DNA of 63,478 nt, the filler included, from Octopus bimaculoides (lineage: Eukaryota): NCBI RefSeq assembly GCF_001194135.2. It is 4 parts of 4 records of this genome, joined end to end, with 100 filler letters (N's around TTAATTAATTAA, not from the genome) between each part and the next. Parts side by side here need not be neighbours in the genome. Positions count along the whole stretch, not along the records: positions 1 to 30,452 come from NC_069006.1; positions 30,553 to 57,706 come from NC_068982.1; positions 57,807 to 61,424 come from NW_026429175.1; 1 more part is not named here. One strand, written 5' to 3'. Each line of letters opens with the position of its first letter. Position 1 is the first letter of the stretch. A model generated the notes under the pieces. It was given only the letters and a program-made list of their open reading frames with translations. It made no database searches and was not told the DNA's origin. The translations under genes were made by a program, and so were the position numbers. Below are positions 89-58,095 of the stretch, piece by piece.

Positions 89-285
89 GTTTGCCAGGTT
101 TTTGTCTCTCTCACCAAGGTCATCAGCTGTCGAACGCCGACGAAGGGAAATAACCCTGAAATCCGGATACGTTCGTGCTGCTGATCGAGGTGAGAGGGAT
201 AACTTCCCTTGGCAAACAGGACACAGTCGTGTGTCGATAAGCCAGCTGGAGGAGATGTCCTCCTGGGGCTAAAAGCAACAGTAAC
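89..285 (+). mobile_element. Short structured SINE/retrozyme-like element containing a hammerhead ribozyme
   Basis: Long rod-like self-complementarity 89-217 around the hammerhead. It is followed by hairpins gacaca/tgtgtc (220-235) and ggagga/tcctcc (248-263) and the tail ggggctaaaagcaacagtaac. The 3' part is similar to 58020-58095 and to both arms of 7241-7492. Confidence 0.6.
131..175 (+). ncRNA. Type I hammerhead ribozyme motif (core variant CCGACGA)
   Basis: Helix I cgaacg(131-136)/cgttcg(170-175); core CCGACGA(137-143); helix II aggg/ccct with loop aaataa; GAAA(158-161); palindromic helix III ATCCGGAT; AUA triplet, predicted cleavage after 169. Confidence 0.75.
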
Positions 286-394
286 ATCCACCCCTAGGGG
301 TCAGCCACACTTAAGTGGCAATATACTACACTTTATATATATATACATATATATATAATCTTCAAAATGTAACCACATGTGAATCGGTTATTTT

Positions 395-540
395 CTTCCT
401 CTGTCTTCCTTTTCTATTGGATTTTCCTGTTTCTCAAGAAGAGCTTTGCTCAAAATGTGAAACCACCTCTCTTTTCTTCCCTGAGCGTCTGCTAATACTT
501 TACATGTACCATGTCCTCCCGTTGTTGTTTTTTTGTGTTT
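395..540 (+). mobile_element. Decayed repeat with remnant of a minimal (Penelope-type) hammerhead motif
   Basis: gttt-CTCAAGA-a-gagc-ttt-gctc-AAAA-tgtg-aaac at 429-463. The same arrangement and a similar downstream sequence (ctctctttt...ctgagcgtc) occur at 63347-63420. Confidence 0.4.
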
Positions 541-569
541 GTTCTTCATTTACATATATGTATGTATGT

Positions 570-770
570 ATGTATGTATGTATATGTTTGTGCGTCTATC
601 CCCCGACCATTGTTTGACAACTGATGTTGGTGTGTTTACGTCCCCGTAACCTAGCTTTTCGGCAAAAGAGACCAATAGAATAAGTTCTGGGGCTGACTTG
701 TTCGACTAAAGATGGTCCTGCAGCATGGCCGCAGTCAAATGACTGAAACAAATAAAAGAGTAGAAGAGAA
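570..770 (+). mobile_element. SINE family A, 3' half
   Basis: Matches the 3' half of 6322-6770 and ends in gcatggccgcagtcaaatgactgaaacaaataaaagag. Confidence 0.8.
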
Positions 771-796
771 AATGTTTAAATTTTACAGGCCCTTAC

Positions 797-817
797 AAAC
801 CATATTAGCTTGGATTG
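797..817 (-). CDS. Candidate 21-nt coding micro-exon (phase 1 to 1; xIQANMV)
   Basis: ttgttttcatttgtttaattctgatcag|CAATCCAAGCTAATATGGTTT|gtaagg; phase fits both neighbouring exons. Confidence 0.55.
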
Positions 818-897
818 CTGATCAGAATTAAACAAATGAAAACAACAACAAAATCAACATGAAAAACAACAACAGAAATGGTTCTATTAATTCTTAC

Positions 898-53880: not shown

Positions 53881-56258
53881 CTCAAGGGATAATTTGGCGC
53901 CATTCGAAAGCTAAAACAATGCAAAGTGTATTGTGACTAGAAGGGCATAATAGCATTTGACGGTCTGGTCGATACCGTAATATACGTGTGTGTATGTATG
54001 TATGTATGTATGTATGTATGTAAAGTATAGTCGATCAGTCAAGCGGTTTTGGTAAAAACAGTTGGTTGGCCTCTCTCTGTATCTCCGTATATATAATTTG
54101 ACGTATTATAGACTCATTCTACGACCCCTAAAAAAACAATGGAGCGTTTTGCTCCTAATAAAAATAATAAAAAAAAAACATTATATATTCATAGTACATA
54201 TTGAGGTCTTTTTTTCTTACATCTGTAACCGCTAACTTGGTTTTATACGCACACACATACACACACACACACACACACACANNNNNNNNNNNNNNNNNNN
54301 NNNNNNNNNNNNNNNNNNNNNNATATATATATATATATATATATATATATATATATATATATACATGCATACACACACACTTATTTACACATACGCTTAT
54401 ATCCACATACAACCATATTGGGCTAGTTGTGCAAATAAATGTTAACAAATTCAATATATTTTGTATTGTGCTGAAATGGTAACTTGCCAGGACCAATCAC
54501 TAGCCATGTTAGGCTTTATACGTATTTGCTTTGATTTTTCAAATGCCACCGTCTTCTACTTAGCTATTTAGCCTTTTGAAAAATGAATAAAATGAATCTA
54601 TCACGTACTGCACTCTTTGCAATAGGCTGAAGCTTGCTAATACAAATTTGTGGCTTTATACCAAAACCAGATGTCGATATTTACTGATAAAATGATGAGC
54701 TCTATACAACAATTGGTAAGTCCTTTATGATTAGGGTCTCTGACGTAATCTCTCTTTGAGTTTGGAAGTGGTTTCTTTAATACTATAGTTCAATGTCTAT
54801 GCAACGTGAATTATCATTGCCATTCTATCTAATATACAATATATTTCTACCTCGTCAAAAATAATAGTAATTTTTGGTGAATCTTAATTCAAATATAAAT
54901 ACACATTTAGTATAAATACATATTTAACAAATAAACGAAACAATCCTTAGATTAGAAAAAGAAAAAGCATTTAAAGGAGAATACGATAAGCAATTTTGTT
55001 TTAAGTTCCATTGTTATCAGTGCCTCCAATACAAAAATGGACATTTCTAAGAAGAATTTCAGGAAGCAATTTTTAAATTTCTGATATATATTTCTTATTT
55101 CTTGTCTTTTTCTTTAACTGAATTTCGTTCTTCTAAAATACATTTTCTTATGATGAAATATTTTTTTTCATATAATAATTTATTTCCATACATATTCCTA
55201 GGGAAAAAACATTAATGCTTCTCACCTGGCTTGAATCGAATTAACCATCTCTTCTTTTTTTTTTGACTATGGAAGCATGCTGAACGCTAAATTATTAATA
55301 TATAAAATTCTTATATAAATGCCACCAGGATGCCTCAAGGGATGGATGAAAATCGATGCATAATACTTTACTCCAACTTCATGTCGTTCAGCAAATGAAA
55401 ACTTTCTTGAGTGAAAGACTACTCACTTATAAGTAACTTTACTAGAATGGTTGCCGTCTAATTCCATTGGTAAGGTAGATCTAATTCTCTGTAGATGTGA
55501 GAATTGATTCTTCTATTCTTCTTGAGTAAACTCTTAAGTAAATTAAGAATATTTGAAAATTTTCTGTAAAATCGACTGATATTAAATGTATCTTTTATTA
55601 ATTTATGTGAAAAGCGTAACATTTTAATTCTGTTGCAGAGCACATTAAATTTAAAATAGATTGTCAGATTCACTTAATTCACAACAAATGCAGAAACGGC
55701 ACAGGTGTGCCTTGGGTATTTAGGAGAATCATTTTGTTGGATTTTAATTCCAAGCTAAACATTTTTCATTTATATTTAAGCAAATTACTCATCTTTTTTG
55801 CCTTTCTAACAGGCCTCACGTTTTGGAGGCTAGTTGTACTGGAGCTTCTCCTGTTATAAGTTTATGAGATTTACGCACCTCTCCTTCCTCCGTTTTATTT
55901 TCGGGATGATTTTTACGTGTTCTCACTAAATGATTAATTTTAGCACAGCGTTGTAAATGAATAAAGAATTTATATAACTACAAAGTTACATCGTATCCAT
56001 CCGTGTTTTGTATATTACTGTAATAATTTAGGTCTGATGATCATCTACAGCCTACGGAAACAGACATTTTGGTGTTCTATAAATCTGAGGTCTTTTATGT
56101 ATGACAGAAATATAGATTGAAAAGGTGATTCCTTAATGAAATTAGTTTGTAGAGTTATCATATGGAAATTCCGTCCTCGTGTAGTAGTATATACATGTAT
56201 AGGACAAGTCAACATGGCAAAGTCTAGTTCTCACCAAGCTGAGCTCATTGAATGATTG

Positions 56259-56468
56259 AAACCTTTAGTATTTAAACAGGCCATATCTGGGCCAAATATT
56301 CTACGTTTTGTGTTCAAAATGGCCAGATGTCCTTCCACACCAATCCCCCAAATTATTCTAAAAATTAACAGTTATCTCAACGAAATCTTAAAGCTACAAA
56401 ATTAATTCAAATCGTGTCAATGAGTAAGCATTGTATTGGACAGAACAATGTGAATGCTAAAGGGTTAA
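56259..56468. mobile_element. MITE with ...CCTTTAG / CTAAAGGGTTAA ends
   Basis: Left aacctttagtattt; right aatgctaaagggttaa. Confidence 0.55.
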
Positions 56469-56551
56469 ACTCCACATTTTAAGAAAGAAGAGAATAGTAG
56501 TTCACTATAATCTCCTCCTTCTACAGTGAACTGAGAATACACAGGTATCTA

Positions 56552-56768
56552 TAAGGCGGCGCGATGGCAGAAACGTTAGCGCGCCGCGCGAAATGCTTAG
56601 CAGTATTTCATCTGTCTTTACGTTCTGAGTTCAAATTCCGCCGAGGTCGACTTTGCCTTTCATCCTTTCGGGGTCGATAAATTAAGTACCAGTTGCGTAC
56701 TGGGTTCGATCTAATCGACTGGACCCCTCCACCAAAATTTCGGGCCTTGTGCTTAGAGTAGGAAAGAA
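56552..56768 (+). mobile_element. SINE family B, full length, CpG-rich copy
   Basis: Head aggcggcgcgatggcagaaacgttagc...gagttcaaattcc; core ttgcctttcatcctttcggggtcgataaattaagtacc; tail gtgcttagagtaggaaagaat. Confidence 0.85.
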
Positions 56769-57706
56769 TACACAAGTATCTGCGTGCAGCTGCATTAAAT
56801 CATCTAGCGAAAATTTCAGTTTTTATAAAGAAACCCCTTCAAAGCTAGTGATAAGAAAGAATAGAAAGCTAGTGATAACTTACTACATGTAAGCGCTTCT
56901 ATCATCAGTTTAGTGCCCTTAAGGTTTGTGTCAGCCTGAAATCTCCAGCGTACATATTAACATTTAGTCATTTCGAAGTTTCCAAATTAAATATTTCTAC
57001 AATGATCTATGATTATACATTCAGAAACGAAAATCGACAATTACGCATAGCTCCAGATACCTAGAGAATGAGCTTGTAGAAAGATGTAAGACGACCTTTT
57101 AAAAAAATCTCACCCATAAAAATAGAAGAGTGTGTTATAATCTAAACATATCTCGTGGCTTCTCCTTACACTCATGTGAATTGAGGTTGTAAAAATTAAC
57201 TGACTTTGGGGTAGACATATAACTCTATTGATATTATACGCAACAATTCAGTCCATTTTTGTGCAGGAAATCTCGCATCTTAAGAACTAGATTAGCAGTG
57301 GTTTTTGTTTGTACTGATTTCATCTGATTTGTTAACTTATATATTAAATCAGAGTACTCTCTGTTTTTGATACACGACGAAATAAAAGAGATAACTTAGT
57401 AAAGTTTACCATCAGGTTATGAATAAATAACATGTTTAGTTGGTTGTATTAGAAATGCCATATTTGACATATACCACGAATACAAAAGCTAACATATTTT
57501 TCTCCGACTGAGCAGGTGTTAAGAAATGTGATTTTCTTTTACCACTGTAATTTTTGTATTTCAACTGATATTATATATATGTGTATATATATGTGTGTAA
57601 ATATATATATATATATGTGTATATATATGTGTATATATATGTGTGTAAATATATATATATATATGTGTATATATATGTGTATATATATGTGTGTAAATAT
57701 ATATAT

Positions 57707-57806
57707 NNNNNNNNNNNNNNNNNNNNNNNNNNNNNNNNNNNNNNNNNNNNTTAATTAATTAANNNNNNNNNNNNNNNNNNNNNNNNNNNNNNNNNNNNNN
57801 NNNNNN
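57707..57806. other. Artificial assembly spacer 44N-TTAATTAATTAA-44N
   Basis: Identical to 30453-30552. Confidence 0.9.
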
Positions 57807-57935
57807 TTAAACGTATATTTTTTTTTAAAAAAAAGCTAAAAAGACTCACTAAATGACAATTCTTAAATGTTTGTAGTGTCCTGTATTGTCCCATCTATGT
57901 ATGATATTTTATTATCGTAATAAAGAGAATTGGCA

Positions 57936-58095
57936 AGCTACTTCAGGCTGATGACGGGCAAAGACTCAGAAACATGTCCCTGAATGCTGGCTAGGCTGGG
58001 TGGAGGAGCTTGTCTCCCCCTCGCAAACTTAAGGACACAGTCATTGTGTCAAGGCCGACAGGAAGCGGTCCAGCTTCCTAGGGCTAAACGGCAGT
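57936..58095 (+). mobile_element. Second copy (5'-truncated or diverged) of the hammerhead-bearing element
   Basis: Hammerhead followed by cccctcgcaaac..ggacacag, hairpins gacaca/tgtgtc (58034-58050) and aggaagc/gcttcct (58060-58079), tail agggctaaac. Confidence 0.6.
57942..57984 (+). ncRNA. Type I hammerhead ribozyme motif
   Basis: Helix I ttcagg(57942-57947)/cctgaa(57979-57984); canonical CTGATGA; helix II (c)ggg/ctc(a) with loop caaaga; GAAA; palindromic helix III ACATGT; GUC triplet, predicted cleavage after 57978. Confidence 0.75.

Follow-up and report, generated by a model that had tools for sequence, protein, structure and literature searches.

The window analysed here, 63,478 nt of Octopus bimaculoides DNA made up of four joined parts of four records, contains hammerhead ribozyme motifs followed by similar hairpins, which raises the question of what kind of element they belong to and which enzyme copies it. 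A preliminary description had proposed a small mobile RNA family. The analysis suggests, with a probability of roughly 0.7, that the first copy (copy A) is a 346-nt retrozyme whose transcripts are cut by its ribozyme and that a Penelope-like element (PLE) copies it into (TA)n sites.

Hammerhead motifs

A search with a structural descriptor on both strands of the window gave two matches and none besides, compared with a mean of 0.02 matches per shuffle in 100 shuffles, confirming the two hammerheads of the preliminary description. Both motifs fold as type I hammerheads, at 131–175 (A) and 57942–57984 (B), the match to B being obtained with one helix II mismatch allowed.

124..180, plus strand: hammerhead A, type I, canonical architecture (descriptor, fold and family variation)
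57937..57987, plus strand: hammerhead B, type I, architecture as in A, canonical CUGAUGA core

In hammerhead A, helix I has 6 bp and is interrupted by a 3x1 internal loop; the core CCGACGA (137–143), a 4-bp helix II with a 6-nt loop (144–157), GAAA (158–161) and a palindromic helix III (161–168) make up the rest, and the predicted cut is after 169. In hammerhead B the core CTGATGA (57948–57954) is followed by helix II (57955–57968), with a C.A mismatch at its base, and a palindromic helix III (57972–57977), the predicted cut being after 57978. When compared with the type I core (CUGANGA...GAAA...UH, helices I–III), B agrees except for the one helix II mismatch, and this weakened helix is likely a sign of decay. 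In A the helices are intact and core position 4 is a C and not a U (U4C), a known natural variant. The U4C change is reported to reduce hammerhead activity in vitro considerably (PMC3088659) and may mean weaker cleavage in family A.

Hammerhead A is enclosed by a longer hairpin, flanked by the inverted repeat 102–127/177–202.

89..217, plus strand: long predicted hairpin around hammerhead A (fold and inverted repeat)

The folding of 85–335 gave a z of -6.6, with 0 of 200 shuffles as good. Alignment of the hammerhead hairpins of A and B was weak (z 3.1, 9 of 2000 shuffles as good), and A and B belong to different families. Searches with Rfam gave 0 matches to a hammerhead family at the gathering score and, at E up to 10 in 400–500-nt stretches around A and B, chance or microsatellite matches and no hammerhead; the identification therefore rests on the descriptor together with the variation within the family.

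A structured 3' module

The preliminary description had noted a pair of downstream modules. The module is indeed shared by both hammerheads, but the window contains four copies and not two, the two extra ones lacking a hammerhead.

219..333, plus strand: 3' module of A (fold, alignment and pairing)
58033..58148, plus strand: 3' module of B, ending in (TA)n

In A the module is composed of hairpin 1 (220–235), an outer stem (240–243/267–270) bearing hairpin 2 (248–263), GGGCTAAA at 266–273, hairpin 3 (290–301), hairpin 4 (304–319) and an end at 333–336. The module of B is 77% identical to it, hairpins 2 and 4 differing by paired changes, and the alignment of the two gave a z of 10.2 (0 of 2000 shuffles as good). 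An assembly gap that ends at 57806 leaves B without a defined 5' limit. From the cut site to two motifs of the module the distances are 50 and 97 nt in A and 55 and 103 nt in B. Both the common GACAC/GTGTC hairpin, at similar spacing in A and B, and the second hairpin with altered sequence and kept pairing were found as first described. GGGCTAAA had been taken for the tail but is internal: its GGCT pairs with (A/G)GCC below hairpin 2, closing the stem, and the sequence shared by A and B runs ~60 nt further, through additional hairpins, to a common 3' end (333 and 58148) with (TA)n next. In three of the four copies in the window the end lies ~60 nt past GGGCTAAA; the fourth extends for another 50 nt.

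Among the four copies, 4 of 19 pairs are changed on both sides, and the share of cells that pair is 97%, compared with 30–48% in slid controls, as judged from four sequences and a structure derived from those same sequences. A covariance model built from them revealed no fifth copy in the window, the next match reaching 15 bits (E 0.06). The proposed linkage of a hammerhead to a structured 3' module in a small, non-coding, multi-copy mobile family was supported.

Copy A as part of a 346-nt tandem unit

The window begins inside the unit to which copy A belongs, and the remaining 10 nt are known from public contigs alone.

1..336, plus strand: copy A, covering 336 nt of a 346-nt tandem-repeat unit, very probably a non-LTR retrozyme (contig joints)
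334..358, no strand: (TA)n target directly after copy A

In contigs of public runs the end of the unit is joined to its own start with 10 letters between, giving a head-to-tail unit of 346 nt. Among the joints listed (12 of 45), all 12 link 336 to positions 1–4 (runs X1, X6 and X14), and in run X17 the joint appears as a loose end; it was thus found in both DNA runs and in one of the two RNA-type runs, the RNA label of X14 and X17 being a guess. Contigs aligned over 340 nt numbered 9343 and 8457 in the DNA runs, and the summed depth over 1–336 was 0.4–2.9 million. Since summed depth is no copy number, the 10^4–10^5 copies obtained on dividing it by the depth of longer contigs are an order-of-magnitude guess. 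The tandem junction is visible in the two runs guessed to be RNA for which contigs were aligned, in contigs that are too short for two hammerheads and in which circles, tandem transcripts and DNA look alike. Within the window TRF found no tandem of the unit.

The unit has a GC content of 45% (0.446). As in other retrozymes, a head-to-tail unit between 150 and 450 bp with one canonical type I hammerhead was found in family A, which is non-coding, has a GC content under 50% and carries neither LTR nor tRNA head. The lack of a tRNA head and of an ORF had been stated before and was supported, ARAGORN finding 0 tRNA and the 89-aa frames over A showing no Pfam match above cut-off; family indels at 88–90 and 204 shift these frames. 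The 89-aa open frame at 3–269 was rejected as a gene, its sole match being DUF5919, below cut-off. The retrozyme reading listed in the preliminary description fits family A, with its very high copy number and tandem arrangement, and family A is very probably a further example of the known animal retrozymes and not a new kind of element.

In five runs of organism A guessed to be RNA, 0.73–0.91 of the words were present. The share was 0.09 in run X20. In the runs of organisms B–D hardly any of the words occurred, which does not prove that the family is absent. Six further joints were each seen in a single contig; five begin at unit positions 13–52 and two switch strand. They are compatible with re-initiation in the tail region but were set aside as evidence because four of the six have sides under 30 nt.

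Inverted pair C and its insertion footprint

The two module copies lacking a hammerhead form an inverted pair.

7241..7360, minus strand: C-minus, left arm of the inverted pair, a module copy truncated at the 5' end and lacking a hammerhead
7361..7492, plus strand: C-plus, 5'-truncated module copy without hammerhead, right arm, ending in (TA)n
7191..7240, minus strand: one-sided extension ('tail') of ~50 nt of the C-minus arm, then (TA)n

The arms are separated by a spacer of 0 nt and are identical at 108 of 120 aligned positions. The extension resembles window positions 1–60, the start of the next unit (z 4.8, 0 of 2000 shuffles), whereas in control alignments the sequences downstream of C-plus and of B were equalled by 459 and 808 of 2000 shuffles. 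C was also considered as a TA-flanked MITE, a reading dropped because the arms differ in length and the surplus of the longer one is homologous to the next repeat unit. A look-alike at 12005–12125 was rejected as a module copy, being weak against A (6 of 2000 shuffles) and absent against C-minus (975 of 2000). The sequence upstream of B showed no significant likeness to A 1–95 (1901 of 2000 shuffles as good) or to the tail of C (202 of 2000).

All four element ends adjoin (TA)n, at a chance of ~0.011 each, as in the AT-rich or (TA)n targets of PLE insertions. The inverted 5'-truncated copy and the tail at one end, each seen at one locus (C), also match the PLE features of PMC8557442, although the tail of ~50 nt exceeds the 30–40 nt reported. 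C belongs to a sister family, 77–79% identical to A, and the footprint is found at C and not at A.

Autonomous element or independent family

The PLE features raise the possibility that all copies are only pseudo-LTR ends left by autonomous PLEs, truncated at the 5' end and dead on arrival, with no independent non-autonomous family. Pseudo-LTRs of PLEs bear type I hammerheads and mostly occur as truncated solo copies (PMC4209133). Such a stump is seen in C, the tandem context shown is that of A and not of B, positions 240–321 are common to sister families behind differing upstream sequence (53–68 contigs per DNA run), and 294 loose ends beyond those listed could include ORF junctions. In family A, however, the end meets its own start 10 nt on, which leaves no room for an ORF, and cover stays within one order over the whole unit. 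Moreover, the canonical 6-bp and 4-bp helices with a helix III are typical of retrozymes and not of the minimal PLE motif (PMC7229834). As an account of all copies this reading is unlikely, but for B and C alone it is quite possible.

An autonomous PLE would carry an ORF with reverse transcriptase (RT) and GIY-YIG domains, and the unit, closed at 346 nt, has none. Pfam matches to RT or GIY-YIG were lacking in the 149 of 216 candidate frames that were searched, chosen from the longest. Viral contigs contained 0 matches to the module pattern, and the three loci found in metagenome contigs with a second pattern were regarded as chance because they are GC-rich (63–72%) and lack the rest of the module; an autonomous element with the module was accordingly not found in the window frames or in the metagenome or viral contigs.

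LINE or PLE as partner

According to the preliminary description the 3' stem-loops recruit a LINE reverse transcriptase. The element would then be SINE-like, its stem-loops and GGGCTAAA end being recognised by an RTE or by a microsatellite-targeting Dong/R4. The repeat at 15120–15220, which ends in CCTGGGGCTAAA and a CAA-like tail and has a 12-mer in common with A, presumably has an RTE-type end, and 37 contigs in X6 depart from the unit after 274 and continue in heterogeneous sequence. The likeness of the module to 15150–15230, with the one other GGGGCTAAA repeat end at 15202, is however within chance (181 of 2000 shuffles), GGCT is base-paired, and the copies end well past GGGCTAAA as described above. 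Neither the tRNA or 5S head nor the LINE-shared 3' end of a SINE was found, and the two LINE fragments of the window end in unrelated sequence and not in the module, a comparison that covers LINE ends inside the window, the second fragment running into a gap. Both Dong-R4 and RTE have been recently active in O. vulgaris, in which PLEs make up 6.83% of the genome with 31 families recently active (PMC13282606); the curated repeat library of that species counts 190 PLE and 80 satellite families. Tail and inverted structures like those of C are not seen in non-LTR TPRT (PMC8557442), and the SINE-like reading is considered quite improbable.

The inverted truncated pair with its one-sided extension, together with the (TA)n targets, makes a PLE the likelier partner, and a PLE rather than a LINE is therefore regarded as the probable one. 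Two internal start sites of the reverse transcriptase downstream of the hammerhead are described in PMC11167929, and the two 3' ends of the octopus elements agree with them.

Variation within family A

When analysing 36 variants of family A, it was found that the core positions vary solely at N7 (141) and H17 (169), both tolerant, and that a helix I variant keeps a G-U pair. The changes 162 T>C and 167 A>G would compensate each other and have equal depth in X14, but in DNA 162 T>C is found more often than the change that would compensate it. The common variants at 89, 104 and 182 disrupt pairing in the outer hairpin. Both observations count against the preferred reading. Variants reaching at least 2% in both DNA runs number 0 in 216–336 versus 15 in 89–215. 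C4 is fixed, which counts against the retrozyme reading.

That family A, of PLE-end origin, is now satellite DNA spreading only by unequal crossover, with an inactive U4C hammerhead and no RNA intermediate, would agree with the fixed U4C and the satellite-type amplification discussed in bioRxiv 2026.07.22.740005, but is very improbable. The catalytic core and the 3' module are spared by the variation, unlike the sequence between them, a pattern not expected if one unit were homogenised at the DNA level, and the end of copy A before (TA)n falls where the dispersed B and C-plus also end. The module, near-invariant in family A and with its pairing kept across divergent families, is a candidate recognition signal for a reverse transcriptase, with about even odds.

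Proposed mechanism

In the preferred retrozyme reading, multimeric transcripts of family A would be cut by the hammerhead into unit-length RNAs, and cleavage after 169 would probably be most efficient in dimers formed through the palindromic helix III. The helix III self-duplex was calculated at -10.9 kcal/mol, and the active monomer fold lies 7.8 kcal/mol above the minimum-energy fold. Counting against such cleavage, eight of nine predicted Xenopus retrozymes gave none in vitro (bioRxiv 2026.07.22.740005). By analogy with mussel, coral and axolotl the unit RNAs would be ligated to 346-nt circles, and the occurrence of circles in vivo is considered somewhat more likely than not. The reverse transcriptase/GIY-YIG protein of a PLE would bind the hairpin module and start cDNA at one of two internal sites, ~165 or ~215 nt past the cut, giving two 3' ends and copying into (TA)n sites. 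Truncation at the 5' end and fold-back could produce hammerhead-less stumps such as C, and B probably represents, in decayed form, a sister family with the same module.

A wider and more tentative proposal is that the ~115-nt multi-hairpin module might be the cis signal for a TA-targeting PLE reverse transcriptase starting cDNA at two fixed sites, kept by several octopus retrozyme families with differing hammerheads and spacers to parasitise one PLE. If so, it would be the first RNA handle to be defined between a retrozyme of animals and the autonomous element it depends on, and would provide a portable tag for insertion by PLEs.

Relation to known elements

Retrozymes of animals are known and their PLE origin has been argued from phylogeny, but in the literature found the mobilising enzyme and the RNA signal are not shown; no published report of an octopus retrozyme was found. 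The cross-family module, the two mapped 3' ends and the PLE-type scar make the question of the partner directly testable. Family A adds a very abundant, apparently undescribed ribozyme repeat to a cephalopod genome and is a possible source of abundant circular RNA there.

Metazoan non-LTR retrozymes have units of 350–390 bp in mussel, 330 and 350 bp in axolotl and 220–245 bp in coral, and include newt satellite 2 (Cervera & de la Pena 2020, PMC7229834); the 346-nt unit fits those of mussel and axolotl. Like them, the octopus family has a tandem unit that is non-coding and some hundreds of bp long, with less than 50% GC, a single canonical type I hammerhead whose palindromic helix III is short, a very high copy number and a well-paired predicted fold. 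The octopus host, the fixed U4C core of family A and the structured 3' module common to divergent families are different; in a passage of PMC7761336, metazoan retrozymes are described as having no conserved motif indicating a partner.

With PLE pseudo-LTRs and insertion units (PMC4209133, PMC8557442, PMC11167929), among which Neptune and Naiad are the (TA)n-biased clades, the octopus elements share a defined 3' end with a type I hammerhead ~165 nt before it, truncation at the 5' end, an inverted truncated copy, a one-sided tail and TA-microsatellite targets; they differ in the lack of an RT or GIY-YIG ORF in unit and window and in a hammerhead that is canonical and not minimal. Xenopus retrozymes (bioRxiv 10.64898/2026.07.22.740005) are likewise proposed to have units from PLE ends and to use PLE enzymes. 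The proposal there is based on co-occurrence and phylogeny in vertebrates, whereas in octopus, an invertebrate, it is based on an insertion footprint and a conserved RNA module.

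Tandem organisation and abundance of family A

Contigs of four public sequencing runs (X1 and X6 of DNA; X14 and X17 taken as RNA, a label that is a guess) were compared with positions 1–340, the window beginning within a hammerhead copy, copy A, whose repeat type is referred to as family A. In every row listed of the joint table (12 of 45; X1, X6 and X14) position 336 was joined to positions 1–4, the joint to position 1 crossing 10 letters, and the same 336-to-start continuation appeared in X17 as a loose end. These joints therefore define a head-to-tail repeat unit of 346 nt, and the tandem copies that the preliminary description had proposed to look for are present in public contigs. 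Of the 24 runs listed, 19 contain 50% or more of the words from 60–340; these 19 are all from one organism, and 12 may come from the source of the DNA. Contigs matching 1–340 numbered 9343 and 8457 in the two DNA runs, with a summed depth over 1–336 of 0.4–2.9 million, which is not a copy number. Family A is very highly abundant. It resembles the mussel and axolotl non-LTR retrozymes, as far as these are described in a portion of PMC7229834, in size, GC content (45%), helix geometry and tandem form. Family A is likely a very abundant hammerhead-motif retrozyme family (small, non-coding retroelements) with sister families and an insertion scar of Penelope-like element (PLE) type.

Hammerhead motifs and their variation

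The hammerheads claimed at two loci were both recovered, at 137 (A) and 57948 (B), by a structural descriptor (core, 4-bp helix II and helix I of at least 5 bp) searched on either strand, and no further hammerhead was found with it on both strands of the window. Copy A matches strictly, B only with one helix II mismatch allowed. In 100 dinucleotide shuffles the descriptor gave 0.01–0.02 matches per shuffle, none of them with a palindromic helix III. Both copies have a 6-bp helix I, a 3x1 internal loop, a 14-nt helix II plus loop and a palindromic helix III. In hammerhead numbering, core position 4 in A is C, and the helix II base in B contains a C.A mismatch. The Rfam models scored neither hammerhead, which weakens an easy identification. 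The shared architecture equals the canonical metazoan type I form outlined in part of PMC4209133, and according to a passage of PMC3088659 U4C reduces activity in vitro, yet is tolerated by viroids. As had been stated, no tRNA and no credible ORF were found.

When analysing the 36 variant rows obtained from the contigs on 1–340, core variants were seen only at N7 (25–34%) and H17 (A>C, 17–18%), both tolerated hammerhead positions, and no C4 variant at 2% was found in family A. A helix I variant preserves a G-U pair and the 162/167 pair may covary, 162 T>C being the commoner of the two changes in DNA. Common variants at 89, 104 and 182 disrupt outer-hairpin pairs, which argues against the predicted fold. 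Variants of at least 2% in both DNA runs numbered 3 in 1–88, 15 in 89–215 and 0 in 216–336, making the 3' module the most constrained part of the unit.

A shared 3' module

The module, a multi-hairpin part of ~115 nt, occurs in the window as follows.

219–333 (+), in copy A
58033–58148 (+), in copy B
7241–7360 (-) and 7361–7492 (+), two extra copies identified by BLAST within the window

The similarity downstream of the two hammerheads was upheld (z 10.2, 0/2000 shuffles; 77% identity), the module being longer than claimed. GGGCTAAA is not a tail: its GGCT closes a stem beneath hairpin 2, and the likeness runs on through more hairpins to a common end at 333 and 58148, followed by (TA)n. The hammerhead hairpins align weakly (9/2000 shuffles as good), and this together with the strong module match places A and B in sister families. 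With a covariance model of the four copies, no fifth was found in the window. Across the four, both partners differ in 4/19 pairs, and pairing is kept in 97% of cells (30–48% in slid controls); the consensus structure excludes hairpin 3. This covariation, based on four related sequences with the structure derived from the same four, is only suggestive. Loose ends before 240 (53 and 68 contigs), where 240–321 and a GACAC/GTGTC-like hairpin are kept behind other sequence, show several sister families sharing this module part, one of which could be the autonomous PLE.

A (TA)n-ended sequence with GGGGTTAAACAGCAACA at 12005–12125 (+), weakly similar to A and with no match to the extra copies, is possibly a very old module relative. 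An imperfect inverted repeat (57866–57890/58131–58148; 14 nt, 79%) joins the B upstream region to its 3' end and could be a unit-junction hairpin or a tiny inverted copy.

Insertion ends and the partner element

The partner had been proposed to be a LINE, and the following repeats, presumably RTE-type, were compared with the module.

5085–6195 (+), broken LINE 3' fragment
60575–61424 (+), broken LINE 3' fragment
15120–15220 (+), repeat terminus containing CCTGGGGCTAAA plus a CAA-like tail

There is little for a LINE: the repeat end at 15202 has one 12-mer in common with the module and 37 contigs depart from the unit after 274, but the alignment to that repeat end is not significant, and both LINE fragments, neither carrying the module end, terminate in unrelated sequence. 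Among 5 homologs of the LINE-like frame 5085–5492, 2 carry a species name, both of them Octopus bimaculoides proteins (69–73% identity), so that the host is likely an octopus, judged at genus level.

The features at 7241–7492 point instead to a PLE. Here the module is present twice in 5'-truncated form, the two copies meeting head-to-head with a 0-nt spacer and arms 90% identical; the plus arm terminates at the usual module end while the minus arm extends ~50 nt beyond it, into sequence that matches the beginning of the following A unit (z 4.8, 0/2000 shuffles). No such match was found in the sequence after the plus arm or after B (459/2000 and 808/2000 shuffles as good). (TA)n adjoins 4/4 ends (chance ~0.011 each). 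Part of PMC8557442 gives the PLE signature as (TA)n bias, an inverted truncated copy and, on one side, a tail of 30–40 bp, and says that such a tail is absent from non-LTR TPRT; the locus shares all three, with a tail of ~50 nt instead of 30–40 bp. For the anole PLE, a portion of PMC11167929 describes two internal RT start sites with the tail between them; since the first falls in a stem-loop 111–118 nt inside the ORF, it is located downstream of the hammerhead. A section of PMC13282606 describes PLEs in O. vulgaris as abundant, with recent activity. No autonomous partner was found in window frames or in metagenome and viral contig searches.

Proposed mechanism

From the observed anatomy, tandem form, abundance, constraint and insertion ends of family A a putative cycle can be drawn. 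An array of units would be transcribed and the transcript cut after 169, favoured as a dimer; the helix III self-duplex is computed at -10.9 kcal/mol, and the active fold of the monomer lies 7.8 kcal/mol higher than its minimum fold. Dimeric PLE hammerheads are reportedly the topic of Luense et al. 2017. The cut RNA might be ligated by a host ligase, as in part of PMC7229834, and a PLE protein would bind the module and start priming at nicked (TA)n, using either of two sites, circles or multimers as template giving cDNA longer than one unit. Excerpts report that 8/9 Xenopus retrozyme candidates lack cleavage (bioRxiv 10.64898/2026.07.22.740005), and that the anole PLE ribozyme requires protein while insertion is possible without ribozyme (PMC11167929).

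Relation to known retrozymes

The retrozyme class is already known and a PLE link, proposed in 2020, is backed by phylogeny in a part of bioRxiv 10.64898/2026.07.22.740005. No octopus retrozyme was found in the literature covered; the supplements of that preprint and of PMC7229834, outside this scope, may list cephalopod families. One passage of the paper on the giant squid genome gives a count of 235 Hammerhead_1 matches, without analysis there. Module sharing is the least ordinary point, since a section of PMC7761336 reports no partner-indicating motif in metazoan retrozymes, whereas the families described here have the module in common. Family A gives a testable handle on the mobilisation of animal retrozymes.

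Other features of the window

The window is AT-rich animal DNA with many microsatellites and 21 assembly gaps, and contains the following.

33663–34483 (+), 44990–45555 (-) and 53349–53850 (+), remains of three broken Tc1/mariner transposases (HTH domains; Pfam Transposase_1 at E 1e-17 and 7e-19)
42219–42321, 51381–51439 and 60152–60221, short non-microsatellite tandem duplications (periods 48, 30 and 35)

Three identical gaps (30453–30552, 57707–57806 and 61425–61524) consist of 44 N, 12 letters and 44 N, the letters being an AT palindrome in the two gaps read, and are likely non-genomic assembly filler; one lies ~125 nt upstream of the copy B hairpin.
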